Assembly (NCBI GenBank): GCA_002245135.1
Contig: NGBS01000314.1
Coordinates: 62,001 to 126,000, forward strand
Direction: 5' to 3'
DNA from: Proteromonas lacertae
Taxonomy: Eukaryota
Length of the DNA stretch: 64,000 bases
The position numbers and the translations under genes were made by a program. Positions within the stretch are counted from its first letter, which is position 1, and the number at the start of each line of letters is the position of its first letter. The notes under the pieces were generated by a model, which searched no databases, had not been told where the DNA came from, and saw nothing but the letters and a program-made list of their open reading frames with translations. This document shows positions 5,235-62,475 of the stretch, piece after piece.

Positions 5235-5254
5235 TTACATCTTTTAAAATATTA

Positions 5255-6100: not shown

Positions 6101-6111
6101 TCAAGTAAGAT

Positions 6112-7461: not shown

Positions 7462-7557
7462 ATATTTATTTAAATTCACATTAACACTATAAATTTAAAT
7501 ATAATCCCCATGATAGAAATATTAATAGTTCAATTTTTATTATTCATATATTGGTAG

Positions 7558-7953: not shown

Positions 7954-8992
7954 TTATTAATTTTTCTAAATCTTTCTAAATGGTCAAATAGTTCAGCTTT
8001 ATCCCAGAAATAATACCTTTTTGTTATACATTTGCTATGATCTTTATAATATCCTTTGTAAAGAATTAATAACGAAAATGTTGAATAACCTGTAAGTAAC
8101 AAATAGTCAGATTTACTAGTTAAATATATGTCAATTATTGTTTTATCAATATCTTTACTATTGAAGTGTTTGGATTTTGCAGAATGTTTTACATCATTAG
8201 AAGGGTTATATATCAATACATTTTTATTCACTTTCATAAATAATTCATTAAAATATTTACTAAATGAACTTAAGATAAACATACAATTATTATTACATAA
8301 TGAATGTGACAAATTATTAATGATATATATTTTATTGATGCTAATATTGCATGAGACCAAACAACTATCATATAATCTTGCATGTACACCGATCAATGAA
8401 TGATTTTTATATATATGAAGTATAGAATTACCTATTTGAATATGTCTATCATGAAATAAGAAATATTTACTGTACAATATATAATTAACCTCAAGTATCT
8501 GATCTAATATATTACTCTTGATTGAACATTTAATGAATCTTAATCGCTTTAGTATTCTATAATATATTTTGGCTTTAATTATTGTAGGAACTAAATCATG
8601 TATGCTGAATATAGAAATAGAAAATACTTCAGATTTAACGATGTTGTTTATCATATCTATAGGACTTAAACAGTAATTATAAAAAGAAAATGACAAAGAT
8701 ACATTTATATTCTTTCTAGAATAAAAAGATTTTGTATTAACGTTATTAAAATTGAAATATTGATCTAAATTTTTACCTATAACTAACAATAAGTTATATA
8801 TGTAATACTATGAAAATTTCTATTTGAAATGAGTGATAAAAGAAAAATACCAGGTATTCCTGCTATTCTATTACCTAATCCATCATTTTTCACTTCTGCA
8901 AAAATGTATAGAGAAGGTTTTATTTTGGCTGCATATTTGTAATTAAATATACTAATTATAAAAAACAAAATAATAACATAAAATAACAACAT
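7932..8992 (-). CDS. GDP-fucose-dependent fucosyltransferase (GT11/GT23/O-FucT superfamily), one intron ~8783-8808
   Basis: Exon 1 has TM plus DGLGNRIAG; a GTATTAC...TTAG intron joins it in frame to IGVHAR and GYSTFS motifs. Confidence 0.75.
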
Positions 8993-9145
8993 TATGATAA
9001 ACTATTTATCAACTTAATATATAGTATATAAATGAGACTGTGGCCCTTTGTGACAGAGTCTTAACGAGTTTTATAAGAGTCCGTCCCTTTATAGAATAAA
9101 CTTTATAATATCCAATTGGTAACTAGTTAACAATTGTAAAGACCC

Positions 9146-9530
9146 TGTTGTGCGCCGTTTGTCATAGTTGGCCATTTGTCTACCAGACACTTTTAAAACA
9201 AACTAAATACATATTCTTACTTGTCTTGATGAAAAATTGTTACTTTTATACTTACTTTGTTATATGACCTACCTCTGCAGTATACATTTTTGTTAATATA
9301 AATAGTTTGAATATTTGTGCCGTTTGTTTTCTAGAAATTTTTGAATCAAACTAAATGCATGTTTAGCTAATATAGACTAAAATATATTAACTGAAATGAT
9401 TAGAACAACTTAATGTTGGTCATAAGACATTTAAAATGAAAAAAGAAAATATAGAATCAAGCCTCATTCAAGCCTATTTTTACATTTCTTCTTTTTATAT
9501 AGAAAGATTTAATAATTCTTACATTCTAAA
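9146..9530. mobile_element. Left half of foldback MITE family A
   Basis: Starts TGTTGTGCGCCGTTTGTCATAGTTGGCC; near-identical to the copies at 14403, 18685 and 20432. Confidence 0.85.
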
Positions 9531-10055
9531 GATTTAATATTGAACTTCTGATCCATGAGTGGGTATTATTAAATATGATTTGTTTATGCTAGTAGAAGGA
9601 TTTTGAAAATTATATATCCATTTTTGTATTACATCTGTTCCATATAATACATTTGTCTCATTATTGCAGATATATTTATGTTGGATGTATGACCAGTATG
9701 TTTTTATTAAGCCATTATTACATTTTACATAATTTAAAGTGTATAATATAACTTGTTATAGTATTCATGTCCGTAACTGTAGTTGTTATAAATAATATCA
9801 CTATCCTTACAATTAATTTTCTTAATGATAATTTTACAATTATTATATATATTATTAAAATTATAATTATAATTATATTCATTATTTGTAATAATCATAA
9901 ATATAATTATGAGTGTTGTGCGCCGTTGAGCCGCTCTCATCATATAATTACTTTTAAAACAAACTAATATCATTTTTATCTTAGTTATAAAGTGTTATTA
10001 ACAAATATATAGTTAGTTTGTCATATGACCTACATCTGTAATATACTTTTTTATG

Positions 10056-13000: not shown

Positions 13001-14161
13001 TATACGATTTTAGTTTATTTTATCAATTCAAATACTATCAATTATACTATCAATATTTTATCATTTATTCATTCTTTTATCATGTATTTACATTCTTCAT
13101 ATAAACTGTAATAATATATATTAATATTTTCTTTTGTTTTATTGATATTATAATCTTCATTAAATAACAATTTCTTATTATCTATATTGATAATACACTT
13201 CTCTAATCACATTCTAATTCATTAAATTCTTATGGTGTTGTGAAGAATAAATCATATAATCTCATATTCTCTTCTTTTCTAATAATAATTTATTATTAAA
13301 TGAAATTAATATCACAGTAACAAATTATCATAGTATTTAAAATATCAATTTCAATCCTTTTGAGGTAATTTTTAACAAATATAGCTTAAAAACACTTATT
13401 AACACTTTTTTATTAATAAACTATAGAATATTTTCATAATAATCTAATGGCTATTAGATCCAGATATTAAGTATATTACTAGAGCTGTTGTTACTGCTAT
13501 TTTTCTTTCCTTTGCTAAATAACTAAAAGCCAGTGGGTGTGTCAGATTCACCATTTAAATTCCAATAAATCTTCTTCTCAAACATCTTTCCTAATTCTGC
13601 TACAATTCTCGATGTTTATCATCAACATTGTTAGTTTATTACTTCATCTACATATTAAATTTAATTGTGACAACCAAAAACAATTATCTCTTTCATATTT
13701 TAATTAAATTATCCATAATGACTAGTAACTAATAAATAACATTTAACATATTCACTATATTTTAATTCTAGCACCACTGTGTCTTTGTATATTAATCATA
13801 AAACCACATAATAATATTTCTTATTCAGCTATTGAATAAGGAGCTTAAAAAATAAAAAATTTAAAATCATTCAAACTTGAGGTTTGCTTTGTGAAAATGT
13901 TTTGTTTATTTTTTCATTAAATAAACATATTATTACGAAAATAATTGGAGGTCCTAAATGCAGATATTATGCACTTTTGTTTGGACCTCAATTTTAAAAC
14001 TAATGTCAAAATGAATTAATCATAAGTAAACGAAATTCACAGATAGTTTCAGAAACTCTTAATTACTTATCTATATCTAGAAGAAATTTAATATAAAGGC
14101 TGTAACACCACTAGAAATAGGGTGTTAAAAATTTGAACAGCCGTTCTAAAAAAATCTCCTC
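10056..14161. mobile_element. Mutator-like (MULE) DNA transposon, apparently full length
   Basis: ~709-bp near-perfect TIRs (10056-10764 and 13453-14161); 9-bp TSD TTTTTTATG at 10047-10055 and 14162-14170; internal transposase. Confidence 0.95.
11017..12962 (+). CDS. MULE transposase with SWIM zinc finger (1-nt frameshift at ~12272)
   Basis: N-terminal CxxxGCxF...HNH finger; CDGTF, HDKE, DTFH and STSAVEALN catalytic motifs; CNC...GIPCSH SWIM in the second frame. Confidence 0.9.
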
Positions 14162-14402
14162 TTTTTTATGAACTTCATTATTCTCAATATTAAACTTATT
14201 TTTTTATTTTTTCTATTTTATTGTTTCAGTCACTACTATAGTCTAAAATACATTATTTGATATGAATAGAATTCACTGTTTGTAATGTTAAGGCAGAGAA
14301 AAAAGAAATAAGAAGTTCAAGCCTACTTTTTAATTTTGTTTTTTAGAATGTAGTGACTGAAACAATAAAATAGAAAAAATAAAAAAATTAGTTTAATATT
14401 GA

Positions 14403-15670
14403 TGTTGTGCGCCGTTTGTCATAGTTGGCCGTTTGTCTACCAGACACTTTTAAAACAAACTAAATACATATTCTTACTTGTCTTGATGAAAAATTGTTAC
14501 TTTTATACTTACTTTGTTATATGACCTACCTCTGCAGTATACATTTTTGTTAATATAAATAGTTTGAATATTTGCGCCGTTTGTTTTCTAGAAATTTTTG
14601 AAGCAAACTGAATTCATATTTAGCTAATGTAGACTAAAATATATTAACTGAAATGATTAGAACAACTTAATGTTGATCATAAGACATTTAAAATGAAAAA
14701 AGAAAATATAGAATCAAGCCTCACTCAAGCCTATTTTTACATTTCTTTTTTTATATAGAAAGATTTAATAATTATTATATTCTAATCATTTTAACTAATG
14801 TATTTTAGTCTATATTAGCTAAATATGCATTCAGTTTGATTCAAAAATTTCTAGAAAACAAACGGCGCAAATATTCATACTATTTATATTAACAAAAATG
14901 TATACTGCAGAGATAGGTCATATAACAAAGTAAGTATAAAAGTAACAATTTTTCATCAAGACAAGTAAGAATATACATTTAGTTTGTTTTCAAAGTGTCT
15001 GGTAGACAAACGGCCAACTATGACAAACGGCGCACATGTTGCGCGCGATAAAGAAATTTGCACGATAAAGGAAGTAATTGTTTATATTTAGATCTAATAT
15101 AATATTATTGTTAATGCCATTATGCTGTGCATGAGTATATAATCATTTTGTCTTATAACAGTCATATACAATAGTTATGTTCTATTATTCATAAATATTT
15201 ACTACATATCCATCTTACTTATTTCTATAATTTAACATTATTTTTATTTCATGTATCACTGGAAGAAATTGAAATAAATAGTTCTTTGATGAAAAGATTA
15301 AACAAAATCGATGTTACGATGGTTTGAAATAAAAAATAAAATATTGGCTTGAAGAAGGCTTGAGCATATTTTCTTTTTTCTTTAATATTTTTTTAAAGGG
15401 TACTATATATATATCAATATGTTAATAAGACATATATATTAATATATTCTAGCGATTTAAATAATAAAATAATTACAAAAATTAATAATAGATGATATAA
15501 ATCTTATTGAAAACTTAATGACAATTTCAACATATGTAATTTATTAGACAAAATAATGTTATATTTATTTTCACTCGGCCTTCTTAATATGTATTAACAT
15601 TTTCAATTTAATGGAAACTTATTACTTCCTTTATCGCGCAAATTTCTTTATCGCGCGCGACAGCACAACA
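14403..15670. mobile_element. MITE family A inserted in MITE B
   Basis: TGT...ACA ends; 5-bp TSD ATTGA at 14398-14402 and 15671-15675. Confidence 0.9.
15037..15662. mobile_element. MITE family C inserted in the right TIR of MITE A
   Basis: TIR TGTTGCGCGCGATAAAGAAATTTG / CAAATTTCTTTATCGCGCGCGACA; 5-bp TSD GCACA at 15032-15036 and 15663-15667. Confidence 0.9.
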
Positions 15671-16721
15671 ATTGAGAATAATTAAGTTCATAAAAAAGTA
15701 TATTACAGATGTAGGTCATATGACAAACTAACTATATATTTGTTAATAACTCTTTATAACTAAGATAAAAATGATTTTAGTTTGTTTTAAAAGTAATTAT
15801 ATGATGAGAGCGGCTCAACGGCTAACAACAACACCTTCTTTACTATAGATTTTTTATAGTAAATCCAATTGATCCTGCGTTAATTTCTGATATATCCTTT
15901 TTTTAGGAGTTATAACTACAGTTTCTGGAATAACATTTATAGAAGGAGCAATAGTGCTACTTGTCATTACTTCTAATTGATGATGAGTTAAATACTCAGA
16001 TGGTTCAGGCATTCTGCAGTATTCATCATTAAGATTAACATAGTTAAGTGTCATATTATTCAAATCTATGTCATTTATAATGTAATATTTTTATACTTTG
16101 TTTTGAGTGAGATTAACTTACAAGTAATGATGAACAAATAATTCAAAAAAAGAGAGCTTGAAAAAAGCTCAAGTATTTCGCAATAAATCTCATGTTTTTA
16201 GAAAATGTCGGTTTCACACTTAAGTATTTTGAAAATAACTCGAAGGCTTTCTTAAGTTTTTCTGAAATTATCTTAAGTAAAAGTAAAATCACTGTACGAC
16301 ATTATACATAGATTTAGGTTATACTACAAATATTAAACTATAAATAAATGCTATAATGAATGGTGAGTTTTATTGTACTAAAAACAAATATAACCAAAAA
16401 AACTTATGAAAAAATTATTCAAAACTGTCATTGAAAAGGTCAAATTATTTGCTTTTGTTAGTGACTTTACGGTATTCGATTTTCGGTCTGCTAATCTTTT
16501 TGTGATACAATGTGATATATTATGATTGAATTAGTTTATATAAAGGAGATATAAAGAAAAAATAGATTAATTGAATATCTAACATCTGTTGTTATTATTG
16601 CAACAATTGTTGGATAGGAATAAACATAAATTTATCAGCCATAAAACATCTGTAATATACTTAAACATAATTCGACATTTTTTACCGTTTCATAAGGTTT
16701 GAAGTGTCGAATTATTAGGTT

Positions 16722-17681
16722 ATGACTGTATTTGATTTTCATTCACAAAATATGATATTTAGTAATATATATTTTAATACATTCAGTAGTATTGTTCTAT
16801 TTATCATAATAATATTTTTAATGTTAAAATTATGTATTATAAATAATGAATATTTAAAAAATAAAAAGAAATTATCAAAATATTTTGAGTATAAACATCG
16901 AAAAATGAATTGCAAACTAATATATATAAGAATGGTGAATAGAAAGCCAGCAGTAGAATGGCCTCCACCAAGATTTCCACCGCCACATTTATATAATGAG
17001 TTTATTCAGTATGGAGAAATGCCAATAAAAACTATATATTATAAAACAGACAAACGTTCTGGTTCTAGCCATTTTGTTAGTAAATGGACTAAACAAATGA
17101 TAGAAGAAATGAAAATAGATTTTACATATAATAAAATAATAAGTAGTTATGGAATACATTCTCAGAAATTAATTGATGAAGCAATAACAAAATATTCTGT
17201 TACTAACAAAGATGTTGCTGTAATAGGATCATTATCTCCTTGGATTGAAGCAATAATTTCCTTAAAACAGCCTAAATCAATAACAACAATTGAATATGGC
17301 AAAATAAATTCTACCATTCAATATATAAAGACATTTATTCCAAATGAATTTGCAAAAGAAGCTTTGAAAAAGAATGTGAAATTTGATTATGTAATATCAT
17401 ATTCATCTTTAGAACATTCTGGTCTTGGAAGATATGGAGATGAATTAGATCCTAATGGAGATATACATGCAGCTGAAGAAGTATGGTGTATGCTTAAAAA
17501 TGGAGGTTATTTTTTGATAGGTTTGCCTTTTTCTAATACATCATTTATTAGATGGAATGCAGATAGAGTTTATGGGCCTGAGCGTATGAAAATTTTTGCT
17601 GCAAATTTTGAACAAGTTGAATTTTTTGGTAAACCTTGGAAGAATCAAAATATCTTACTATTGAGAAAAATCAAAATGTGA
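16722..17681 (+). CDS. DUF268-family SAM-methyltransferase-like protein
   Basis: TM anchor; VAVIGSLSPWIE, SSLEHSGLGRYGDELDPNGD and WNADRVYG are DUF268 hallmarks. Confidence 0.85.
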   Translation: MTVFDFHSQNMIFSNIYFNTFSSIVLFIIIIFLMLKLCIINNEYLKNKKKLSKYFEYKHRKMNCKLIYIRMVNRKPAVEWPPPRFPPPHLYNEFIQYGEMPIKTIYYKTDKRSGSSHFVSKWTKQMIEEMKIDFTYNKIISSYGIHSQKLIDEAITKYSVTNKDVAVIGSLSPWIEAIISLKQPKSITTIEYGKINSTIQYIKTFIPNEFAKEALKKNVKFDYVISYSSLEHSGLGRYGDELDPNGDIHAAEEVWCMLKNGGYFLIGLPFSNTSFIRWNADRVYGPERMKIFAANFEQVEFFGKPWKNQNILLLRKIKM

Positions 17682-17706
17682 TAGTAAATATTTATTTATT
17701 TGCTAA

Positions 17707-18594
17707 TTATATTGTCTTGCTAAAGCTATTTATATATTTGTTGTTATAATTTTGTACAAAATTACTTTCATTTTCAAACTTGTCACTAAAACAAATAATA
17801 TGTGATAACCTAAGTCCATCTATTTCAAATAAACATCCAAGTGTTATTCTTACAATTTTATACTTTCCTACCAAATAACAATTATAATCTAATCTTTCTA
17901 AATAGATTACTATGAAAGATGATTTTGTTTTGCATAAAAAATGATATTCTAAATAAATAATCTTTATTATTCCTTTTGATAAAAGATTTTTGCTTGTAAA
18001 TATAACTTCATCTTCATATCCTTCTACATCAATTTTTAGAAAGAATATATCTCCTATTTTTGTATATTTTTCATAGTAACTATCAAGATTCATGAATGTT
18101 ATGTTAGTAGTATATAAATTTCTAATCTTACTCATCATACTTCCTGCTTTATCATACTTCCAAATAATTTTATCTCTATTATATCCAATTGCTGTGTTTA
18201 TAATCATTATATTTTTCGAAGAATTAAATTTGCATATACTAATCTCACAATTCAAAGGTAACGGTTCAGCTAAATATATTCTATTTTTAGGATAATACTT
18301 ATGAAAGATTTCAGTAACTTCTCCGATATTTGATCCTATATCAAATATACAATCATTTTTTGATAATGTATTGTAAATGTGTTTAAAATTTGTAAATAAT
18401 TGTTTTCTAATATCATCATCATTAAATATATGTCTATTCCGTGTATCGAAGTATTTTTTATTATTTATAAAATAAGAATCACATTGTGTAGTTTTATATT
18501 TTGATTCATGTTTATGCTCACATGTTAAGAGAAATAGCAATATAAATAAAGCAAATAGTATAACTAATTTAATATCTTTACTTACACACAACAT
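17707..18594 (-). CDS. FkbM-family methyltransferase
   Basis: IFDIGSNIG, AEP and LKIDVEGYE motifs; likely start MLCVSKD followed by a TM; the ORF-track start lies inside the adjacent MITE. Confidence 0.85.
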   Translation of the reverse strand: MLCVSKDIKLVILFALFILLFLLTCEHKHESKYKTTQCDSYFINNKKYFDTRNRHIFNDDDIRKQLFTNFKHIYNTLSKNDCIFDIGSNIGEVTEIFHKYYPKNRIYLAEPLPLNCEISICKFNSSKNIMIINTAIGYNRDKIIWKYDKAGSMMSKIRNLYTTNITFMNLDSYYEKYTKIGDIFFLKIDVEGYEDEVIFTSKNLLSKGIIKIIYLEYHFLCKTKSSFIVIYLERLDYNCYLVGKYKIVRITLGCLFEIDGLRLSHIICFSDKFENESNFVQNYNNKYINSFSKTI

Positions 18595-18684
18595 GTAGAT
18601 TATTTTAATTATACACTTAATTTTAAGAATGTTACATTGGCTGTATATTTCTAACACTATTTCTGCTTTATATTTAAAAACATC

Positions 18685-19310
18685 TGTTGTGCGGCGTTTG
18701 TAATAGTTGGCCGTTTGTCTACCAGACACTTTTAAAACAAATTAAATGTATATTCTTACTTATCTTAATGAAAAATTGTTACTTTTATGCTTGACCTTAC
18801 CTCAGCAGTATACTTTTTTATTAATATAAATAGTTTGAATATTTGCCTCCGTTTGTTTTCTAGAAATTTTTGAATCAAATTAAATGCATATTTAGCTAAT
18901 ATAGACTAAGATACATTAGCTGAAATGATTAGAATATAATAATTATTAATCTTTCTATATAAAAAAAGAAATGTAAAAATAGGCTTGAGTGAGTATTGAT
19001 TCTACATTTTCTATTTTCATTTTAAATGTCTTATGATCAACATTAAGTTGTTCTAAACATTTCAGCTAATGTATTTTAGTCTATATTAGCTAAACATGCA
19101 TTTAGTTTGCTTCAAAAATTTCTAGAAAACAAACGGCGCAAATATTCATACTATTTATATTAACAAAAAAGTATATTGCAGTGGTAGGTCATATAACAAA
19201 GTAAGTATAAAAGTAACGATTTTTCATCAGGACAAGTAGGAATATACATTTAGTTTGTTTTCAAAGTGTCTGGTAGACAAACGGCCAACTATGACAAACG
19301 GCGCACAACA
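18685..19310. mobile_element. Complete foldback MITE family A (~626 bp)
   Basis: Element is largely a long inverted repeat with TGTTGTGCG...CGCACAACA ends. Confidence 0.9.
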
Positions 19311-20268
19311 GCTTATATGATAACGTAACATTATATCCCTTCATAACTCATTATGAGTAATAACATTATGTAATTAGTTTTTTTCTAAAGTTTCTAATCG
19401 CTCAACGGGGAGTTGTACTCAACGGGGAACAACAAACTAATTTTTGTGATTTTCTATTATAATGTATCAGTCACTAATACAGTCTAAAATACATTATCTG
19501 ATATGAATAGAATACATTATTTTTAATGTTAAGGTAATAAAAAAGGAAATAAAAGATCAGACTTGAGTGAGGCTTAAACTTATTTTTTCTTTTTTTTTAT
19601 GTAACCGCCTTAACATTACAAATAGTGAATTCTATTCCATATCAAATAATGTATTTTAGACTGTAGTAGTCACTAATATATTAAAATAGAAAAAATAATT
19701 AAATTAGTTTAATATTGATAATAATGAAGCTCATAAAAAAGTATATTACAGATGTAGGTCATATGACAAACTAACAATATATTTGTTAATAACTCTTTAT
19801 AACTAAGATAAAAATGATATTAGTTTGTTTTAACATAAGTATTAACTCGGCCTTCCAAATAAGTATTAACATATTCACTTTAATGGGAACTTATTACTTC
19901 CTTTAATGCGCAAATTTCTTTATCGCGCGCGACAGGTTTACCTATAGGTCAAAACCTATATTTTTAGCTTTACCTTTACCTTCATTATACTAATTATTAG
20001 TTGACCTCCTATTGAACATGAGTTAACAAGCATATTATCTAACCATAAATACAAAATTAATGTTTTATACATCATCTTTCAAATATCAAATTTGACCTTC
20101 GGTCGATGCACTTTTTATATTACAATAATTTTGATGTATTTCTCAATGATGACTCACAATAACATATTATTAACATAATATTAAATTAATTATAGAATAA
20201 AAAAAATAAAAGAAAAAAACATCAAGCTTGATGGTTTGACTAAGTAAATCTTTATTTTTTAAGATTTA
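19311..20268. mobile_element. Scrambled TE fragments (MITE B internal part, MITE C right end at ~19934, hAT subterminal fragment)
   Basis: Matches 14171-14400/15676-15790, 15570-15662 and the reverse complement of 54035-54104. Confidence 0.7.
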
Positions 20269-20324
20269 GGTAATGGTCCAAATTTAGAGTTTTTGAGCTA
20301 AAGCTCTAAATTTGGACCATTGCC
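20269..20324. mobile_element. 56-bp PIF/Harbinger-like micro-element
   Basis: GGTAATGGTCCAAATTTAGAG...CTCTAAATTTGGACCATTGCC hairpin flanked by a TTA duplication (20266-20268 and 20325-20327). Confidence 0.7.
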
Positions 20325-20431
20325 TTAGAATATAAAAATAATTATTGTAATGAATATAATACTCAAAACAAGAAAAGAACAACTCCTGCCCTTTTTATTT
20401 TTATTTTTTCTCTCTTTAACAAAATGACATC

Positions 20432-22137
20432 TATTGTGCGCCGTTTGTCATAGTTGGCCGTTTGTCTACCAGACACTTTTAAAACAAACTAAATGTATAT
20501 TCCTACTTGTCTTGATGAAAAATTGTTACTTTTATACTTACTTTGTTATATGACCTACCACTGCAGTATACTTTTTTGTTAATATAAATAGTTTGAATAT
20601 TTGCTCCGTTTGTTTTCTAGAAATATTTGAATCAAACTAAATGGATGTTTAGCAAATATAGACTAAGATACATTAGCTGAAATGATTAGAATATAATAAT
20701 TATTAAATCTTTCTATATAAAAAAGAAATGTAAAAAATAGGCTTGAATAAGGCTTGAATCTATATTTTCTATTTTCATTTTAAATGTCTTATGATCAACA
20801 TTAAGTTGTTCTAATCATTTCAGATAATGTATTTTAGTCTATATTAGCTAAATATGCATTTAGTTTGCTTCAAAAATTTCTAGAATACAAACGGCGCAAA
20901 TATTCAAACCAGGGTTGTATAAATCGGTCATGACCGACGGAGAAAACCGATCGGTCGTAGGTCAATAAATAAATGTTGACCGACACCAGGCTGTAGTAAC
21001 TATTAGCTGACCTCCTCCTAAACATGTGATATTAATAATATTATCTAACTGTACATATTGAATTCAAGCTCTATATATCATTCTATAAAATACCGAATTA
21101 ACCGTCGGTCGATGAGCTTTTTTCTTTCTTCATAATTGAATCTAACCTTACCAATGAGTTATTCTATTGTGTTATATATGTAATATAAAGTATAGAATGA
21201 TTATAAAAATTTGAAAGAAAAAATGGCAAACTTTTAGCTTGACATTAATCATTTCTTAAAATTATCATAAATGTATCTAATATAATCTATCATTATATAT
21301 TCTAGGAGTATAGTTTTACCAATTGGAGCGGCTCGTGAAGTTATTGCCTTAAAAGAGGCAAATATGCTTAAACATCTTAATTTTAACTTTTACAAATCCT
21401 TTTGGTATAATATGTTAAAGATAAAAAGCCTTGATAAATGCATTTGCAGTAAAAAGAAAGAGATTAATTATGCCAAATGAAGTACAAGAATATTTGCAAT
21501 ATGATATTCATTACACCTCTGAAACCATTGGAAATATCTGGCTATCATTAAAGTCCAAGTTTCCTAGGGTATACATACTTGCCAAGAACAGTTTAAACAG
21601 TCTAGCAGCATCTTCAGAGCCGGACAAATAAGTAACTTATCCAAATCAAATTTATCATGTGATAGATTACAAATGAAACTGATGATTAGTAGAAATAAAT
21701 AAGAACATAATTATATAAAATACCTAATTATTGTTGAGTATTAAATTGTAATTCTTTATAAAAAGTTAAAAATTATTTAATTGAATTGAAAATATATGAA
21801 TCAAGTATTAAAATATATTATAAGATAGTTTTTATGAAAGGAAAATTAGTATATAATGAATTAAAATAGATTTTATAATATACGGCTTGTAAGGCTTGAC
21901 AGACTGAATGTCAAGGCAAAACCTATAGGTTTTGACCTATCTCCGTCGGTAACCGATAAATACAACCCTGATTCAAACTATTTATATTAACAAAAAAGTA
22001 TACTGCAGAGGTAGGTCATATAACAAAGTAAATATAAAAGTAACAATTTTTCATCAAGACAAGTAAGAAAATACATTTAGTTTGTTTTAAAAGTGTCTGG
22101 TAGACAAACGGCCAACTATGACAAACGGCGCACAACA
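20432..22137. mobile_element. MITE family A interrupted by a hAT element
   Basis: 5-bp TSD ACATC at 20427-20431 and 22138-22142. Confidence 0.9.
20910..21970 (+). mobile_element. Non-autonomous hAT deletion derivative
   Basis: CAGGGTTGTAT...ATACAACCCTG TIRs; 8-bp TSD ATTCAAAC (20902-20909 and 21971-21978); hAT dimerisation-domain remnant WLSLKSKFPRVYILAK at ~21480-21631. Confidence 0.9.
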
Positions 22138-22254
22138 ACATCCTTCTAATTGGTAAATCAGATTTGACAATTATAATTTTTGAATCTTTATTATTTATTG
22201 TAATATATTAGATGATGAAGAAAAGAAAAAACTAGAAATAGGAAAGACTATTAA

Positions 22255-24154
22255 TTATATTTTAACCTTTTTATTCTTCATCTTCTTTTCTTTCAATTTA
22301 TCAATCTCTTCCTTCTTCTTATTCAATCCATATGTTATTCTTGAATGTAATCTTCTTGCTTGTTTAGGCATCATTATCTGTTTCAATTGTTTTGTTTCTT
22401 CTTCTAATTCTTGCTGATTTTTCTTTCTTTTTATTGCTTTTTCAACTTGCTTTTCTTTCTTCTTCTTTTCCACTTTCACATTCTCAGATGGTAATTCTTT
22501 TTTATCTTTATTCATCTGTTCATCCTCCAATTCATTGCTAAATTCAATTTCTTCCTCACTTGAACTTTCATCATCAATATTACCAGATTTCTTATTCTCT
22601 ATCTCATTTGTAATTACTTCTTTAACTGATTTTAACTTATCTAATTCCATTCTATAATCAGGAATATATCCTTCTTTAGAATCATCAACAAATGGTGATA
22701 AATGAGGCGGTAAGATTGATCCTTCTACATACTTTTCAATTGGTAATAACATCTTTGAATTAATTGAATCATATACCCATTGTGGTTGAATATATTCTCG
22801 ATTTGGATATTTATTATTTGTTATTGGACGATCTACTATTTGATGAGTAATTGTTAAATCATTCTCTTTAAATGGAGATTTTGGATTTTCATAACCAACT
22901 TCACCATTGAAACACTTTATTATAAATTCTAATGATTTAATTGGAACTTCTCGAGATAAGAAAAATTTCAATCCTTTGAAAAGATTGATTAATAATTCAT
23001 TTTGATTATGCTTTTCAATCAATTGTTTTGCTTCTTCACTGTCTTTAAATTCTTCATCTAATTCAATTACATTATCATCTTCGTCTTTATTCTCATCATC
23101 ATCATCATCATCTTTCTCTTCAATTTCTTTGATTTTTATAAGTAAATTCTTCATTTTTTCATTAACTTTACTGTTATTTACTTCCTTTTCTTTTTCTACA
23201 GATAGTTTTGTAGTTTTATTCTTATTCTCTATTTTAATTGAATCTAAATTAACCCCTGATTTATCTAATTCTTCATCTATTTGTGGTGGATATTTATAAC
23301 CAGAGTCGTTGTATAACTTAAACAATATAAATTGCATTAGAATTGTATAAAACTCTAAGAAAGTCTTCATTACATTGAAATCTACATCACTTGGTATGAA
23401 TGGAGTAAATTCATATGGAACAATCCATGTTATTTTCTCACCTTGTATTTCACTCTGATAATATATGCCTTTTATACTTACAAACACTTTTCTTAGTGTA
23501 TGAGATAAACTACAATATAAATCCCATTCTTTTGATAATCTTTGACACATTAAAATTACTTCTGATTTTACAGCTCTGATACTTGGTAAACGAGAAAAAA
23601 GGAAAATCATTGACAAAGCATCATCCAAATCCTTTAATGCATCAATAAAAGTAGGATATCTTTCTTTTATTAAATGATCTATATCATATTGAGGAATATC
23701 ATCATATAATCTTCTAGCACCATCTACATCCTTTTTAAATGATGATTTTTTAACCTATTAAAATGTATTAGAGTATTTTATTATATACCTTCTTCATAAA
23801 TGTCTTAATTTCTCTGAATTTTTCTAAAATTGGTTCATGTGAGCAATATAGAATATCTTTTACGTGATAATATGTTTTATCATGTCCACTGCTCTTATGC
23901 TTTGGATCTCTTGGGTAAATTCCTTTCAAAATACACAATCGCCTTAAATATAAGAATAATTAAATATACCTAAAGTCCTTTAAACTGATTTGTAATCTTT
24001 TTAAAGCTTGACCTCTTGTAATAAACTGAGATGATGATCCTGTTCTTCCTTTCTGAAGTATTTTACCAAATCTATCTAGCTTTCTTTTACTACCAATGTT
24101 TATTGCTTTTGATTTGACTGATTTCTTCTTCGGTTTGCTTCTTTTATGCTTCAT
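22255..24154 (-). CDS. PES1: Pescadillo/Nop7 ribosome-biogenesis protein; introns 23943-23969 and 23755-23788
   Basis: [26 protein letters not shown] and [14 protein letters not shown] motifs; LPPHLSPFV. Confidence 0.95.
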
Positions 24155-25198: not shown

Positions 25199-27227
25199 AT
25201 GAGGGAAATTATAGATAATTTAACATTTAACTCAGATTTTGATTCTGGAAATCTGATGAAAGTTAAAAAAGTATTTAATTCAACAAATTAATGTGAATAG
25301 AATGATAAAGGAGAGTATGAATTATGGATTAATTCTGATGGATGGGAATTTGGGATTATTACAAAGTATAATAGTTATATTTAGTAAATAGTATGTCTTC
25401 TTGGTTTTATTTCAGTGTAACAGGAGGAGAAATTGATCAAGTAATAACACTGAAGGTTGTAAATTTGAATAAGCAATCCCCTTTATACTCAAATGATTAT
25501 CGTGTTATTCAAAAAACAGTTCCTACAGATATTGATTGGAAAAGATCTGGGTATGTCATTTCTATAACATTAATATTATAGTCCTGTAATACACAATAAA
25601 GAAGAAAACACATTTTCAATAAGTTGGAATTATATGTTTGAAAGTTCAACAGTTACTGTGTTTTTTGCATTTTGTTATCCTTATTCTTATGAAACTATTG
25701 TAGCATATATGAATAATTGTGATTTTAGACACTATAGTGGTGATTATTCTTCAATGGATATGTATTATAATCGTGAGTTATTAATATATACACCAGAAAG
25801 GAGGAGAATTGATTTATTAACTGTATTTCATTTATTATTGAGTATATTTATAGATATCTTCAAGTCATGATAAGATTGTAGATCAAGAAGAAATAATTGA
25901 TGATTTATTTCCAGAAGGTATGTCTCATAGACCAATGAGATATCCTGGAAAGCCTGTAGTATTTGTCAGTGCAAGAGTTCATCCAGGAGAAACTCCTGGT
26001 TCATATATGATGGAAGGATTTCTTAATTTTATAATGAGTAAAGATAAAAGAGCAGAGAGATTAAGAAATATATATGTGTTTAATATAGTTCCAGTAATTA
26101 ATCCTGATGGTGTTGCTAGAGGGTATTACAGAACTGATATATATGGTGAAAATTTGAATAGATTCTATGATGAACCAAATTTAGAAAAACAACCAGCAAT
26201 ATATGCAATTAAAAAGTTATTAGAATATCACTCAAATAAAGGTAATTTATATTTATATTTGGATTATCATGCTCATGCATCTAAAAGAGCAATATTCACA
26301 TATGGAAATCATTGTACAACTCTTGAAGAACAAATTGACAATCTTTTATTTATATCTTTTTATAAGAATAGTAATTTATTATAATGAATATTCTTTAATT
26401 TATAATATAACCTTACTTCGTATCACTTAATACTCCTTATTTTGATTTAAATCAATGTGTATTTTCAGTAAAAGGAATGAAATCGAAAGACAAGAAAGAT
26501 AAAGGAAAAACAAAAGAAGGATCTGGAAGAGTGGCTATATATAAATCATTCAATTGTATTCATTGTTATACATTAGAAAGTAATTATAACGATGGATTAA
26601 GAATACATCCAACAACTGTTGCATCAGGAGATGGTTCAGAATGTGCAACTCCACCAAGATTAAATCCACAGTTAGTAAAATATACACCAGCAATATGGAG
26701 AGAGATGGGAAAAGCATCAGCAATAGCTATGTTGGTATAATTAGGATTATTTAATTATTATTATAGGATATAAGAGATGAAAATCCGTGGAGTAGAATTA
26801 ATACAAGTTTTTATGGATCATTATCTGGTCTTCAAGAGCATATTAAGTCAAGATTAAAAAATGATGTAGATTATAGACAATACTTTCCACCTGATCCTCC
26901 AAAAGAAGTATCACCTAAAAGGAGTATGTATTTGATCATTTATATAGTTTAATAGCTGTATTAAAACAAGCAGTTGTTCCAATTGTTTTCCCTCCTCCAA
27001 AAGCTCCAAATACAGGAAGTGGATTACCTCCACCAGCTGTAATAAAATATAGAAATAGAAAACCAGTCAGATCAATCAGTCCCATTGTTGTGCCAAAACA
27101 CAATATCGGAGATGAGGTATTTAGTGGAATTGGAAGGTATAGTCCAGTAGTTTGTGAAAATAAAGATGCAATGAGATATCCAATGAGACCTTCAAGAGTA
27201 AAACATAATAATTCAAAATGTAAATAG
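25199..27227 (+). CDS. AGBL5: Cytosolic carboxypeptidase 5-like tubulin deglutamylase, 7 introns (one AT-AA at 26352-26410)
   Basis: FNSDFDSGNL, WFYF, FAFCYPYSY, SARVHPGETP, NPDGV, NLNR, DYHAH, KEGSGRV and YTLESNY motifs. Confidence 0.85.
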
Positions 27228-39566: not shown

Positions 39567-40792
39567 ATGTTTTCATTTCGATTTGTGAGTGTATTACATA
39601 AAAATTTATCACATAAAAGTATTTACAGATTATATGGATCTTGTGGAATTGTGGGAATGCCTAATATTGGAAAATCTACACTTTTCAATGCATTAACTAA
39701 AACGCAACTTGCAGAAGCATCTAATTTCCCATTTTGTACAATAGAACCTAATCATGCTAATATCCTTTTTAAAAATTCATTTTCAATAATATTTGAGTTA
39801 TGCTTAATATCAATTAAAAAGTATCAATACCAGATAAAAGGTTAGAAAAATTAGCTAAAATTGCAAAATCTGGAGTTATTAATAGATCTCAAATAGAATT
39901 TGTTGATATTGCTGGATTAGTAAGAGGAGCTTCGAAAGGAGAAGGCTTAGGAAATCAATTTTTGTCTAATATTAGACATGTAGATATAATACTTCATAGT
40001 ATTCGCTGTTTTGATGATGTAAATATATCTCATGTTGAAGAATCTGTTAATCCAATTAGAGATTTGAATATAATTAAAAATGAACTTATATTAGGTGATT
40101 TAGAAATAATGGAAAGAAGATTATCGAAGAAAATGAAAATAAAAATGAATGTTAAACATGAAATATATGAATTTTTAGTGAATGAATTAGAGAATGGTAA
40201 TTATTTATATGAAAAGAAATATGACAGTGATGTATATGAAGTAATAAAAGATATCCTATTGATCACTGCAAAACCTATAATTTATCTATGTCATGTCAAT
40301 CCAAATGATTGTTTAAATAGAAATAATTATACAAAATTAATAAGTGATTATATATCACCATTAAAACCAATTGTAATATCTCCATTGTTGGAAGAAGAAG
40401 CAAGTCAATTTGAGGATGATTATTCACAATTGGAGTATTTACAATCTTATGGTTTAGATAAAACTGGGTTGAGTAATATAATACTAGAATGTCAAAAGTT
40501 ACTTGATTTGGTTTATTTCTTTACTGTTGGACCAAAAGAATCTCATAGTTGGAGTATAAGAAGAGGAAAGAAAGCAATTGATGCTGCTGGAACAATACAC
40601 AGTGATTTTATATCTAAATTTGTTAAAGCTCAAACAATTAGTTATGATGATTATATAAAATATAGTATTTGATTATAGTAATACAATTAAATAGATGGAG
40701 AAGAAGGAGTTCGCAAAGCAGGTAAAATAAGAAGTGAAGGAAGAGAATATGTTGTGAAAGATGGAGATATTTTCAACTTTTTATTGAGATAA
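39567..40792 (+). CDS. ychF: YchF/OLA1 Obg-family ATPase, probably organelle-targeted; introns 39760-39818 (AT-AA) and 40665-40694
   Basis: [48 protein letters not shown] and [11 protein letters not shown] motifs; basic/hydroxylated N-terminal extension. Confidence 0.92.
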
Positions 40793-53238: not shown

Positions 53239-54104
53239 CAGGGTTGTATAAATAGGTAACCTATAGGTTATAGGTAAAACCTATAATCTAGCTTTGACCT
53301 TAGGTTGGTCAAACCTCAAGCATTATTTTGTTAAAATCTATTTTAATAACTTACAGAGTAACATTTGTTTAATACAAACTATCATACTATATAAAATATT
53401 ATTCCTGCTTCTTATTTTACTTTAGTTACTATAGTTATGACTAAGATTGGTTGAAATTGTATAAATATCTATTCTGATATATTATATTCATCTACAAACT
53501 ACTCAATAGTGATATTTAACATATTTATAAAAAACTTGTTATTTTGATGACTAATTTATATTGATTAATATCTCTAAAAAACAAATATTAATGTAATTAT
53601 AATAATAAATCTATATTTCTGGATATTAATGATTTGTTTTCAATAAGTCTCTTACTTTCTCAGTTTCTGAAAATAAATAATCATTATAAAACTCTCTTAG
53701 AGGTATAATATATCCTAGTTTGAAGTAAAAACTTCTAAATTCTGGTGAGTCTAATATTGTGGTACTGACTGCATTGAAGGTTATTAATTTAAATAGATCT
53801 TTGTTGACAGAATCTGAATTGACTTTGACTTTTACCATATTCAATAATCTGAATATTATATTTCAATCACGTTTTTCCAAAACATTTCGCAGTAGTTAAT
53901 ATTTTTATGAAACATTTTATAATTGAATAAATGAACAACTTCTTTCAATGCGAAAGGAGGTAATGTGATATCCCTATAGTTTCATTTATTATAAAGTCTT
54001 ATAAATATTGAGTAATTATACATCTAAAGAATCTAAATCTTAAAAAATAAAGATTTACTTAGTCAAACCATCAAGCTTGATGTTTTTTTCTTTTATTTTT
54101 TTTT
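53239..54104 (-). mobile_element. Degenerate hAT element (same TIR type as 20910), interrupted at 54105
   Basis: CAGGGTTGTATAAAT terminus; 53626..53844 resembles the N-terminal region of the neighbouring hAT transposase (LDSPEFR vs LDSQDFR). Confidence 0.7.
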
Positions 54105-56080
54105 TAGGGCTGTATAAATTGATCAACCAACCAACCAATTGTTGTAACCATTGGTTTGAAATAAACCATTGGTGGGCATGCTAAATATTTTTGTGAAATT
54201 TTGAATAGATTAGGAAATCTTTGTTGTATGAGAAGCCATAACTCAGAATTATTTTTCTTTGTGCTATTCACTATGTTGTATTGCATAAACCTCTCCAGTT
54301 CATTATCAACATCTGCTATTTTCCTCTTGATTCCTTTACAGGATAAGCACAAATCTAAATCGTTTTCACTGTCTAGTTCACTATTATCTATTTGTACATA
54401 ATTATCTTCTTTCTCTTCATCATATATTACTTGTAATGATGTTGTTGTCAATCTTAATTCTTCATTACTGAATAAAATACAATTCTGAATATATGACTTA
54501 GTTCGTAAGTCTAATAAACAACACATTAATGGTATAAAACTATCGTTGTTAATATTATTAACTCTTTCTATTAAATTGTTTCTGATTGCTATATTGTATT
54601 CTTTCAAATCCTGGGGTAATTCAATATAGTCCATCTCATGGATTAACTGCTTTAATTTGAGGTAGGCTAAGCTAATTGTTATATTATTTGATTCTAATTC
54701 TATAGTTTAACTATTTATAGGTGATAACATTTTTAGAATACCATTCAGTACTATAAAATCTGAAGGAATATACTTATATAGACTGTCATTTGGTTTTTCT
54801 GCTTTGATTCCCATTCTCTTATATTTTTCGAAATCTGTAATTAATTTACTTATTTTATTTTAGTAAATTACCAATTCTTCTTTCACTTCGCTGATTTTGG
54901 ATAATACAGCATAGATGGAATTCCATCTAGTGACTGTATATGATGGAATTGATGTTGATATAACTTTTCTATTTGAACAGGTTCTAAGTTCTTTAGCTAA
55001 AGTGAGATATACATCAACTACATCTTACATTCGAGATATTAATATCTTTTATTGATTTTACCATATTTGGAGCATTGTCACTAGTCACAGATGTAATTTT
55101 TATGTTGAACTCATTTTTTAATTTCATTATCAAATCGGAGATAGTCTCTTATTTCTCATTTGAGACTTCAGTTACTGCCATAGTGTATAATTTTTGTATA
55201 AAATCATCATTTAAATATACACAACTTACTGCAATATACTGTACACACGCTTGACTCTTCCAACCATCCATCATAATACTAACACTACGGCTATTTAGCT
55301 CTGCTTGTAAATTACTTTTCTTTTCTTTAAATTTTAATTCCAAATACTCTGTGTATGTTTTTCTTCTGGGTGCATTGTAATTGAGCTGTCTGCAAAAGCC
55401 TCTAAAATCTTGAGAATCCAGAAATGAAGCTGATGTTCCACTATTAGTTATAAAATCAAATAATTTGTTATTTATATTAATTTGGTCAAGTCTCTTTTCA
55501 CTATCTTAATATTTGTGAGCATTTTCCATATGCGCTCTTACAGCTTTCCCATTGGCAGCATTTCCTTTATAGTATTTACCACAAAGGACGCATACACACA
55601 TTTCGCTATCTTGTATCTTCAAGAATCTATTCCAGTGATTCTTTGTGTGGTTAAATGATAATTTCTCTAATTTGTGAGAATTGAACAAGTTTATTACCTC
55701 ACTGCAAGCACCAGGAGGTAGTCCTAAATCCCTAAAAAATAAAAATGGAGTTTATAAAAATATAGTATATACATAACGAAGATATAAAATGAATCTTTAA
55801 TAGTTTGTCAAGCCAAAGATTATTTTATGTGTTATAAATGCTATTTTTTCATTTATGTTATTTAATTAGATTATATATATTATTGTAAATTGTCTTCATC
55901 CAATTAAACAAACTATAAAGCAAAAATAAATCAATCAACCAATTGGTTAAATTGGTTTTGATATTTACATCAAGAATAGATGAATATTTGGTTATGTGTA
56001 TTATTTGATATGTGGAAGATTATGGATTGTCGATTGGTTACTAAGAGTTTATATGAGCTATAGATTGGTCATTGACCAAT
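54105..56080 (-). mobile_element. hAT element with decayed transposase (BED finger, catalytic and dimerisation remnants)
   Basis: TAGGGCTGTAT terminus and CAACCAA subterminal repeats; fragments CVLC...AHMENAH, MMDGWKS, VTRWNS, LLDLR and WLLIQQRFPNLFKISQKYL with stops and frameshifts. Confidence 0.85.
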
Positions 56081-58420: not shown

Positions 58421-58544
58421 ATAAGCTGCTGTTTAAGTTATTGTAAGAATAAAAAAACCCTTAATAATAGATTCTATTTATTTTTTATTACCACCACAAA
58501 TACAACAATTTCTTATATACTCTTCCATTTTTCTTTAATAAATA

Positions 58545-60268
58545 ATGAAATATTATATTGATATACAAATATTAAGAGGTTTTTCAATATTATTTATAAT
58601 TTTATTTCATTTTAATATTATTAAAAGCGGTTATAAAGGAGTAGATGTTTTTATATTAATATCAGGATTTTTAGTATACAATCAATACGAGAAAAACAAA
58701 TCAATTCTACTATTTTTAGTATATAGGATACAAAGAATAATGATACTATCATATTTTGTTCAGTTTTCCATACTAAAATTCTATTCAGTATATGATAAAT
58801 ATAATATATCAAATGTAATTGATGAATATAATAATGCTTTGCTATTTGTTTCAAATATTTATTATTATTACATAGGTAATGATTATTTTTTGTCTAATAC
58901 TAAGAAAGTGTTGTTACATTATTGGTATATATCAATGGATCTTCACTTATATTTTATTTATCCATTAATTCATAAAGCAAAAATGATTTTCATATTCATA
59001 TTTTATTTAATATTCTTGATAATTCATATAAAAGATAATAGTTTTTCATATTATTTTGCAATAGCTAGGTTGTATGAATATTTGATAGGAAATACATCAT
59101 TTATATATAGAAGAATAAATAATAAGTACATAAAATATGTTTCTATTATTTTAATTCTCTATTCACTTTCCTTTACATTAAGTAATTACTATATAAGTAA
59201 TATAATAATTCTATTATTTACTTATTTATATTTAGTAAATGAATCACAAAGTATAAGTATATATATTATTGAAAAAATTGGAAATGTATCATATATCTTG
59301 TATCTTATTCATTATCCATTATCAATTAAAAATAATTCAATCATGTTGCTAATTTTATTAATGCCCATATATGTTATTCTTAAATATATAGAAAGCTCTA
59401 TTACTATACATTTAAAAGAATTCAATATAGTATATTCATTAGCATTTGTTCTATTCTATTATTTTATCTGTAGAATTGTGTCATATAAAATATCTAAGAG
59501 TAAAACAGAATTTAAAGATAATATACCTAAACAAACATTTATAAATAATTGTTGTGATAATTTTGAATATAGCAGAAATGATATATTAATTATTGGTGAT
59601 TCTCATTCATATAGATTCCTTGTAAATGTGTTACTTATAATATGTGGAAATGAAATTAAGATATACTATAAATTTGTCCATTCAAACTGGATTATACATA
59701 ATTCTATAAAATATATTAATGATATTTATAACAAATTTTATTGATAATTTCCATGAATATGATATCTTGTAGATTGAATTATAAACTACCTATTTTAATT
59801 GATGAATATACCAAATATGTTTTATTCTTAAAATCAAAATGTAAATATTTAATAGTATATAAACCTACACCAACTTTCAATAAGTCAATAGATTGTTTAA
59901 CACAAATCAAAAATAGAATAGCTATAATAAACTATAATATCACTTATATACCTTTTAATCTGAATATCACATATAATAAATATTTCATTCTCAAAGATCT
60001 ATCAAAATATTATTGTAACAATAGAATATGCAACCTTACATATAATAGTAGATGTATTTACGATGATTACAATCATTTAAATTCATTATTTTATCGTAGT
60101 ATATTTAATATTGTAAAGATTGATATACTAAAATACATTCCACATGTTAAACAAAAAGACATGAAATGCAAAAGTTTTATTGTATATAATAATATAATCC
60201 CTTACAATTGGGTTTTTTTAAGGAGCTTCTGTATTAAATCATATTATAGTAAATCTGATTTACAATAG
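58545..60268 (+). CDS. Acyltransferase-3 + SGNH (OafA/YrhL-like) O-acyltransferase; 1-nt indel at ~59738
   Basis: IQILRG...FH, GVDVF, RIQRI, LLHYWY, multiple TMs, IIGDSH and DYNH (DxxH) motifs. Confidence 0.85.
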
Positions 60269-60666
60269 TATTTAAAACATTTACAAGGAATGCAATTCGA
60301 TAGTCAATTAACAGGTAAATGAATTGAAAAGCAACTTAATAGGGTTTAATCTTTCTATCATATTACATTTAATTCTATCGGCATATTCTTTCTACTGTTA
60401 TAAATGCTAAAAACAGTGATAGTGACATTATAGAACCATGGTGTGATTATGCAAGTGATCCTCTGATGTAGAGAATGAGATTGCCCATTTCCTAGATACT
60501 ATTATTAACATTATTAGATTGAAGTATGAATTAGCTGTTAGAAATTAATAATGTGGAAGCAATAAGTTAAAGAGATGATGAGTAAAACTCAGTTTTAAAG
60601 AAAGCAATTGAAAACAACTAATAACTACAATGAAATTATTACAATTAAAATTGTATTACATATGTA

Positions 60667-62475
60667 ATGTTTTTTAATGTTATAGAATCTGTCAAAGGTT
60701 TTTCATGTTTATTAATTGTCTTGTATCATATATCACCAAAATTAATACCTAACGGATTTTTAGGAGTAGATCAATTTTTTATATTATCTGGATTTCTTAT
60801 TGTTAACTCTATTCAAAATAGTAAATACAAATCCTTTAAATTTAATGACTTTATTAATAAAAGAATACAGAGAATTATACCATTAAAATGTGTTGTATTA
60901 TATTATGTTTTATATGTGAATAGACATTATCTAAAAGAGACAATATTTGATTTGGAGTATGATTCTATTACATCATTGTTATTCTATTTCAACTATAAGT
61001 TAATTAATGATAATAATGATTATTTTTCTAAAACTACTACTAATTTAATTCTTAATTTTTGGTCTTTATCAGTAGAAGAACAATATTATATATTAATAGC
61101 AATAATATCAATAATTGCTTCAAAATTGAATAATATAACATCTATAATTATTCATATAACCATAATATGTTTATCTTATATATCTTTTTATCACTACTAT
61201 ACAGAATATTATGTTATATCATTCTACAGCGTTATATCTAGAATGTGGGAATTTAGTTGCGGTTCATGCGCTTACTATTATAATAATTATTATTCAAATC
61301 GATATCTTATGTATTTATTTGTTATTATTCAAGTCATGTTAATGTTTTCAAGCAAAATTGGTGTTATTTGTCATGTATATATAAATGCTATAACAGTGTA
61401 TCAAATCAATTACTCAAAATATAATAATGATATATTTTTCTCCAACTATATCATCAGATTTATAGGTAGATTATCCTATTCTATTTATCTATTTCATTAT
61501 TCGAATGTAATGCTGTTTAACTACAAAAAGGGAATAATTGTGACAATATTAGGATCAATTATTTTATATTATATAATTGAACAGCCATTTAGAAAATATA
61601 TATCAGGTTTAGTTATTATTGTATTTTATATAGTATATATTTTTATCTTTTACAGAATGTATGTTAAAGATTATAAATATACTGCAGTAAGGAAAACTGA
61701 TTATTATTTTATAAAAGATATGTGCTCATATGATATAGTAGACTATATAATTAAATCAAGAATTAATATATTGTTATTAGGTGATTCACACGTTTTACAC
61801 TTCATTAGAGCATTTTATAATAATAAATGTGATGTTGTATTATATTATTCATATATATATGATGCTGACATGTATAAAAGCAAATATCGCACAATAAACT
61901 ATTTATTAAAATATAAATTTGATTTAGTAATAATAGGATTTTTTGAACAATTATATAGAAATGAATCATATAAATATAAAATATATTTATTAATAGAATA
62001 CATCAAGAATATTACTAAGAATGTATTAGTTATATCAGATAATCCATTAATAAAAGTTGACCCCAATAATTGTCTCTTATCAAAGAAATGTAGTTATGGT
62101 ATTATTAATATAAATTGTAGTATTATTCCACCTCATAATCTATCCAATTATAAATTCTCAATTAACCTAAATGTTTATGATTATAATACAAATAAATACA
62201 CCGTACAAGGAAATAAATGTGTATTCTTTGCAAAAGGAATTCCTATATATAGGGATCAACATCATTTTAGTGGTTTTTTTGTAGAAACCATTTTAGCAAA
62301 TGAAATACATAATTTGTTAAACCTAATATTAGAAAGAACTATATACAAAGATGTATCTGTTTCTCATATAAAGTTTCATTGTTTGGAAAATGATCATAAT
62401 ATATATAAAAAAATTTGTTATAGAAATAATTATAAAATACAGAATATACATATAACAAATATAAAACATAAATGA
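60667..62475 (+). CDS. Acyltransferase-3 + SGNH (OafA/YrhL-like) O-acyltransferase
   Basis: GFLGVDQFFILSGFLI, RIQRI, WSLSVEEQYY, SYSIYLFH, LLGDSH and RDQHH motifs. Confidence 0.9.
   Translation: MFFNVIESVKGFSCLLIVLYHISPKLIPNGFLGVDQFFILSGFLIVNSIQNSKYKSFKFNDFINKRIQRIIPLKCVVLYYVLYVNRHYLKETIFDLEYDSITSLLFYFNYKLINDNNDYFSKTTTNLILNFWSLSVEEQYYILIAIISIIASKLNNITSIIIHITIICLSYISFYHYYTEYYVISFYSVISRMWEFSCGSCAYYYNNYYSNRYLMYLFVIIQVMLMFSSKIGVICHVYINAITVYQINYSKYNNDIFFSNYIIRFIGRLSYSIYLFHYSNVMLFNYKKGIIVTILGSIILYYIIEQPFRKYISGLVIIVFYIVYIFIFYRMYVKDYKYTAVRKTDYYFIKDMCSYDIVDYIIKSRINILLLGDSHVLHFIRAFYNNKCDVVLYYSYIYDADMYKSKYRTINYLLKYKFDLVIIGFFEQLYRNESYKYKIYLLIEYIKNITKNVLVISDNPLIKVDPNNCLLSKKCSYGIININCSIIPPHNLSNYKFSINLNVYDYNTNKYTVQGNKCVFFAKGIPIYRDQHHFSGFFVETILANEIHNLLNLILERTIYKDVSVSHIKFHCLENDHNIYKKICYRNNYKIQNIHITNIKHK

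Follow-up and report, generated by a model that had tools for sequence, protein, structure and literature searches.

Probable AT-AA U12-type introns in three genes of a 64-kb Proteromonas lacertae window

Genes and AT-AA insertions in the window

The window, i.e., the whole stretch of 64,000 nucleotides analysed here, has a GC content of 26.4% and codes for CCP5, a kinesin, and domains of the flagellar protein CFAP47, with GT-AG introns of about 30 nt. A passage of PMC10690189 gives 27.0% GC for Proteromonas lacertae and describes Blastocystis as devoid of flagellar genes, and the text of PMC5953543 mentions rquA intron positions common to Proteromonas and Blastocystis. A quick tree of pescadillo (39 rows, the window and 38 of the 120 matches) places the window and its relative P0274 beside Blastocystis sp. 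Blastoise with an SH-aLRT of 91, a node that is unstarred and for which compositional bias was flagged. An exact look-up of five ORFs of the window gave no match; the GC content, the flagellar genes, and this tree make a Proteromonas-like relative of Blastocystis the likely source. The YchF tree (35 rows, with 30 of the 118 bacterial-type matches and with one of the ychF loci described below, L002, left out) includes no other eukaryotes and carries a long-branch warning, and it was not used for placement.

Three genes of the window, all on the plus strand, carry an insertion that begins with AT and ends with AA. The ychF gene (39567 to 40792) codes for a bacterial-type YchF GTPase, whose N-terminal extension is likely a mitochondrial targeting peptide; its AT-AA insertion at 39760 to 39818 is 59 nt long and in phase 1, and a GT-AG intron follows at 40665 to 40694. 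The gene for a CCP5/AGBL5-like carboxypeptidase (25199 to 27227) has six GT-AG introns and a 59-nt, phase-0 AT-AA insertion at 26352 to 26410. The third gene (6112 to 7461), coding for a nucleotide-diphospho-sugar transferase of the PF03407 glycosyltransferase family, has a 45-nt, phase-0 AT-AA insertion at 7300 to 7344 and a second, in-frame GT-AG intron that ends at 6788. It lies within a nearly intronless cluster of glycan-modifying genes (425 to 8807 and 16719 to 18741), whose members include a GT10 fucosyltransferase, a GT92 enzyme, a galactosyltransferase, the PF03407 transferase, a DUF268 protein, and an FkbM methyltransferase.

During minor splicing, U11 pairs with ATATCCTT at the 5' splice site and U12 with a TCCTTAAC-type branch site. 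All three insertions open with the donor ATATCYTTT, at the starts defined by homology, and the extended U12 5' splice site RTATCCTTT is thus present, as ATATCCTTTT in ychF and the glycosyltransferase and as ATATCTTTTT in CCP5. The putative branch sites, all AT-rich, match well in ychF and CCP5 and weakly in the glycosyltransferase. More specifically, the predicted branch site of ychF is TGCTTAAT (39801 to 39808, A at 39807, position -12), which aligns to the CCTTAAC (L001 and L002) and CTTTAAT of the three relatives described below; that of CCP5 would be TTCTTTAAT (26391 to 26399, A at 26398, position -13); and the candidate of the glycosyltransferase, the weakest of the three, is TTTAC (7333 to 7337, A at 7336, position -9), which is similar to the CCTTTAC variant found in Blastocystis ST1 introns. 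Relaxed matches to the donor occur 34 times on the sense strand; 31 of them fall inside coding frames and the other three are the AT-AA insertions, so that none of these matches in the window reveals an additional U12 donor where a frame breaks. The donor matches at 1830, 15892, and 25029 fall away from the exon ends of every modelled gene.

Several other elements occupy the window. A Mutator-like DNA transposon at 10056 to 14161 has perfect terminal inverted repeats of 709 nt (10056 to 10764 and 13453 to 14161), flanking direct repeats of 9 bp on either side, and a pair of transposase-like ORFs (11002 to 12962) with a weak SWIM match below the cut-off; it is probably a recent insertion. Nested non-coding repeat families with inverted arms of 100 to 475 nt, similar to MITEs or foldback elements, lie between and around the genes from 9100 to 22200. 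Decayed transposase-like ORF fragments at 54104 to 55774 on the minus strand have no Pfam match, and we take them to be hAT-like from their motifs. Two tandem acyltransferase-3 genes (58542 to 62475), one with a matched SGNH domain, resemble bacterial O-acetyltransferases, presumably of the OatA-like type, and may have been acquired horizontally.

Splice junctions compared with homologous proteins

The motif RTATCYTTT occurs 18 times in the window, compared to 10.6 +/- 3.1 times in shuffled sequences, and since this enrichment is only mild, the junctions were tested by homology. For this, every join that leaves the frame open was listed and its translation scored against homologous proteins, without imposing any rule on splice sites. 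The references were the first 40 of 118 full-length matches for ychF, the 22 of 120 matches that span the junction for CCP5, and a single protein for the glycosyltransferase. The AT-AA join ranks first of 840 joins in ychF and first of 831 in CCP5; in the glycosyltransferase it ranks second of 593, behind a 1-nt slide that lacks splice signals. Starting from the U12 donor, AA is the best-scoring end in all three introns. This ranking bears out the ychF intron of the original prediction, with its coordinates, its sequence, and its AA end, and the two companions predicted in the same 64 kb are present as well.

It had also been claimed that no GT-AG intron can join the flanking exons. This holds if a collinear protein is required, but in the three genes the frame stays open in 7, 3, and 3 GY-AG joins, respectively. 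All of these score below the AT-AA join, the best of them reaching 210 against 236 in ychF, 93 against 158 in CCP5, and 132 against 167 in the glycosyltransferase, so that a reading of the insertions as major-type introns yielding a collinear protein fails. The spacing of YchF proteins points in the same direction, as 115 of the 118 full-length matches fit the test pattern and every one of these shows the spacing that an AA end produces, with K or R as the junction residue in 103 of them. An AT-AG end 3 nt later was predicted to leave the protein one residue short; indeed, it deletes the junction residue, and none of the 115 matches is that short. AT-AC ends fare no better, given that the in-frame AC located 12 nt (ychF) or 6 nt (CCP5) later deletes conserved residues. 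We conclude that the three insertions are almost certainly real U12-type introns. Homology supports the prediction that they are removed from the mRNA at the called junctions, and AA is probably the junction most used in each of them.

In six-frame views, otherwise intact genes (Ca-ATPase, CFAP47, a kinase, a Rab, and others) change frame about a dozen times where no gap is long enough for an intron. These switches, located near 24280, 31690, 31830, 36490, 38870, 43720, 45300, 45530, 59740, 63035, and 63100, are most simply single-base assembly errors. A fourth AT intron considered in the Ca-ATPase gene (36468 to 36444) was rejected, as it bridges such a one-base switch. Given these single-base switches, a C may also have been lost at the CCP5 junction, and we judge that there is a small chance that this intron is really AT-AC. 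More broadly, the introns might be of U12 type with a canonical end in at least one case, through the AG 3 nt downstream in ychF, an AC in CCP5 if the assembly lost one C of a CCC run, or mixed tandem ends. Several of the frame switches lie in runs, AT-AG is a frequent end in Blastocystis ST1 (94 of 284), and the sequence does offer an in-frame AG at 39821 and two occurrences of AC, one out of frame at 26411 and one in frame at 26416. Nevertheless, against the homologues, the AG alternative scores 222 compared to 236 in ychF and the AC alternative 144 compared to 158 in CCP5; the missing YchF matches with one residue less speak against the AG end, and the Blastocystis-like locus L002 has an AA end without an in-frame AG or AC nearby. 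The AA end of ychF does not depend on how long the A run is and finds support in relatives, and in the glycosyltransferase the nearest in-frame AG before 7344 (7326) leads to a stop, with no C run adjoining the junction. Canonical ends are, on this evidence, quite unlikely, and we retain the AA junctions.

Introns at the same positions in relatives

A scan with the exon-intron pattern of ychF recovered three loci in metagenome contigs (L001, L002, and L003), each of which has a phase-1 U12 intron where the window has its own, and no locus in viral contigs or prokaryote genomes. These introns (ATATCCTTG...YTTAAY) are 43, 43, and 53 nt long, share a branch A at -8, and end, as judged by homology, in AG (L001), AA (L002), and CC (L003). 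L003 is Blastocystis ST4, one of its introns, of 30 nt, being an exact match to the published list; the GT-AG intron of L001 has no match among the rows listed of the ST1, ST4, and ST7 intron list, and L001 and L002 are therefore named only Blastocystis-like. The ychF position is common to the window and all three loci, including ST4, and the CCP5 and glycosyltransferase positions are common to close relatives only. The ychF intron is thus, as far as its orthologous position indicates, ancestral and common to Blastocystis.

The 3' ends of U12-type introns are chosen by their distance from the branch point. The original prediction had proposed this explanation for the AA ends, and it is supported by the three Blastocystis-type orthologues, whose branch A is at -8 whichever of AG, AA, or CC closes the intron. 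Variation of the last base of minor introns, with an AT-AN class, is described in PMC8280824, as is the need of human cells for CENATAC and TXNL4B to splice such AT-AN introns. The intron of L003 (minus strand, about 9122 to 9174) is known from a single contig, on which an alternative AT end, 3 nt before the CC, would lengthen the protein by one residue; CG closes one ST1 intron (OAO15251_3). These two cases suggest that even ends without a penultimate A may be tolerated. The ruler is nevertheless not fixed, since the distance from the branch A to the intron end differs within the window (9, 12, and 13 nt in the glycosyltransferase, ychF, and CCP5, respectively). In addition, canonical ends lie close by, with an AC 1 nt downstream in CCP5 and an AG 3 nt downstream in ychF, both of which should compete with AA.

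Independent Logan contigs add further relatives. In clusters P0001 (86%, 17 members, 15 of them among those listed) and P0002 (69%, 8 members), the ORFs start inside or before the ychF intron and read through as ...K|KV and ...L|KV, respectively, which means that the last intron base must be A in both; the protein leaves the second-to-last base open (xA). The terminal A of the ychF intron is therefore no miscall. For CCP5, the relatives P0142 and P0402 continue into the intron as LLF-ISF, which fixes the donor and the phase of 0 and leaves the end free. For the glycosyltransferase, P0264 has no insert and reads RES-TFLRHP, whereas in P0272 and P0273 the reading RES-ISF runs into an intron at this position. 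The intron of P0272 and three cluster mates is 39 nt long and ends in a Tyr codon, so that its end is AC or AT and not AA; if this cluster belongs to the group, it would argue against AA being universal there.

The read-through also bears on the possibility that the minor spliceosome was lost or is degenerate, and that relic introns are removed by the major spliceosome. The branch motifs are AT-eroded, one of them weak, and an Rfam search of the 64-kb window, minor snRNAs included, gave no match, as this explanation would have it. However, each of the three introns retains the nine-base U12 donor, which is compatible with the read-through of the relatives (ISF, and KYLF in P0002), and every one of the 25 curated major introns is GT-AG and shorter than these. 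Blastocystis ST1, according to the main account of its genome, has 346 U12-type introns in 6,544 genes together with four minor snRNAs and seven minor-specific proteins (Gentekaki 2017, PMC5608401). We therefore regard relic introns as very improbable, and removal by a minor spliceosome remains the preferred reading.

Minor-intron number and the cause of the AA ends

The window contains 28 GT-AG introns (25 curated, of 26 to 43 nt, and 3 located by motif) and three AT-AA introns. The three minor introns of the original count are thus confirmed, but its total of about 37 is reduced to 31, giving a minor fraction of 3/31 (95% CI 2-26%). This count may miss in-frame introns inside ORFs and excludes doubtful ones in a transposon relic and at 56.7 to 57.4 kb, and coding-looking parser introns linked to frame switches were dropped beforehand (CFAP47, the kinase at 31 to 34 kb, the gene at 62 to 64 kb, and the last Rab call). 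The minor introns were rightly predicted to be longer than the major ones (45 to 59 nt compared to 26 to 43 nt), and the same pattern is found in ST1, where minor introns are mostly 37 to 53 nt long and major ones about 30 nt.

A fraction of 3/31 exceeds the approximately 1% of ST1 (P = 0.004), which might indicate an expanded class of minor introns, gained anew as in Physarum; the presence of one of them in a glycosyltransferase family with close homologues only (12 matches) would fit such a gain. The expansion, part of the original prediction, is nevertheless not seen per gene, where three introns in about 27 genes compare with 346 in 6,544 in ST1 (P(>=3) = 0.17; 0.15-0.21 for 25 to 30 genes). 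What raises the fraction is the scarcity of major introns in the window, with about 1.1 introns per gene compared to about 5.5 in ST1, and the choice of a window that looked odd inflates it further. A large per-gene excess, the mark of a Physarum-type expansion, is thus absent, at least from this one 64-kb window; the ychF intron is ancestral, and the inverted-repeat signature of Physarum, judged by eye, is found in none of the three introns. Expansion appears unlikely to us, and retention of older introns is preferred.

As a baseline for the intron ends we used the S11 list of PMC5608401, covered as far as part of its ST7 sheet, in which 284 rows start with ATATCCT, every one of them on the sheet for ST1 (36,252 introns); only such starts were counted, by hand and with duplicate rows included. 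The ends are AC in 168, AG in 94, AA in 15, AT in 6, and CG in 1. None of the 284 rows is on the ST4 sheet, though L003 shows that ST4 has such an intron. Compared to these 15 of 284, AA ends in three of three introns of a window selected for looking odd differ with a Fisher p of 2e-4, and the lower 95% bound on the AA share is 29%. It is thus likely that AA is enriched among the minor introns of the window.

Base composition may account for much of this enrichment. The introns of the window consist of 39% A, 49% T, 6% C, and 6% G, and when the end preferences of ST1 are re-weighted by these values, assuming 50-60% GC for ST1 introns, 25-31% AA ends are predicted. Under this mutation model, three of three AA ends have a probability of 0.015-0.03, and two of two, when ychF is excluded because Blastocystis already has a non-canonical end there, of 0.06-0.10; the former value suggests that the model may under-predict. 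We estimate that AA makes up 25-60% of the minor-intron ends in this lineage, mainly through mutation pressure and not a new specificity of the spliceosome, and that the main cause is probably mutation pressure where the last base is relaxed. The model predicts higher shares of AA and AT ends also in the tortoise Blastocystis genomes, whose GC content is as low as 21-23% (PMC10690189).

The whole could then be explained as follows. The minor spliceosome would remove the three introns, cutting a given number of nucleotides beyond the branch point and tolerating any last base, and AT-biased mutation would have turned AC or AG into AA at many ends. The lineage would have retained ancestral A-type minor introns at about the per-gene rate of Blastocystis, with far fewer major introns, which would inflate the minor fraction. 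We give this combined reading a probability of roughly two in three.

Alternatively, the minor spliceosome of this lineage may have shifted its 3' preference, AA being the main, selected end and not merely the result of drift. The difference from ST1, which persists after correction for base composition (P = 0.015-0.03), the A at the end of ychF in two further relatives, and the apparent preference for AA over an AC 1 nt away in CCP5 and an AG 3 nt away in ychF are all in line with selection. On the other hand, this evidence comes from three introns of a window picked as odd; the ychF position already ends in AG, AA, or CC in Blastocystis-type loci and is therefore not an independent case, and P0272 and its three cluster mates end in AC or AT at the glycosyltransferase position. 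A selected AA end seems doubtful to us for these reasons, and drift of a relaxed last base is favoured.

AT-AA is an already known subtype of minor intron, and A-type minor introns whose last base is relaxed have been described before in this lineage. The window resembles Blastocystis ST1 in its A-type ATATCCT donor and, as predicted, in a YYTTNAY branch site near the end, as these are described in parts of PMC5608401 and PMC10639083 (Larue and Roy 2023), in minor introns longer than the major ones of about 30 nt, in a relaxed last base (AT-AA in 15 of 284), and in the ychF position common with ST4. It differs in that ST1 ends are mostly AT-AC (168) and AT-AG (94), that the branch A of ST1 is mostly about 7 to 9 nt from the end (by eye) compared to 9 to 13, and that the motifs of the window are AT-eroded and its major introns about five times sparser per gene. 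In animals and plants, AT-AA is the commonest non-canonical end in the data presented in PMC10639083, and orthologues change among AT-AC, AT-AA, AT-AG, and AT-AT in examples given there, in Table 2 of PMC1557818, and in PMC8280824. All non-canonical ends together make up only about 4% of minor introns there, by the figure in PMC10639083, and PMC1557818 gives three human AT-AA introns. Physarum polycephalum is another protist with many non-canonical minor introns, AT-AA being 27% of 1,014 non-canonical U12-type introns, but it has thousands of mostly GT-AG minor introns with a TTTGA branch motif and a proposed transposon origin (according to the preprint's account, bioRxiv 10.1101/2020.10.12.336362), whereas the window shows a predicted branch motif of the classical kind, one ancestral intron, and no per-gene expansion.

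The AA ending, known in Blastocystis at low frequency, may be far commoner in this lineage. A literature search outside Zahonova 2023 (the P. lacertae genome paper) and the supplements of PMC10639083, which may hold terminus counts, found neither minor introns in Proteromonas nor an AA-dominant genome. It is conceivable, though less likely than not, that this is the first genome in which AT-AA introns form the majority of minor introns, with the cut counted from the branch point and AA taken even over an AC or AG 1 to 3 nt away. If AA is common or dominant, the lineage offers a natural experiment on how far the minor spliceosome can do without the 3' dinucleotide, and one in which the base composition of a genome is seen reshaping splice signals under weak selection; if AA reaches only about 25%, the result is a modest extension of the Blastocystis and Physarum pattern. 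The ychF intron, ending in AG, AA, CC, or xA across relatives, makes distance and sequence separable in tests. Gene finders restricted to GT-AG and AT-AC introns would mis-model these genes.

Relatives at 65-69% (P0002 and P0274) read through the last GT-AG intron of the window's ychF (40665 to 40694) and both introns of pescadillo (23755 to 23969). P0002 keeps the minor intron of ychF, yet is without that last GT-AG intron, and such comparisons suggest a faster turnover of major introns than of the minor one in this group.
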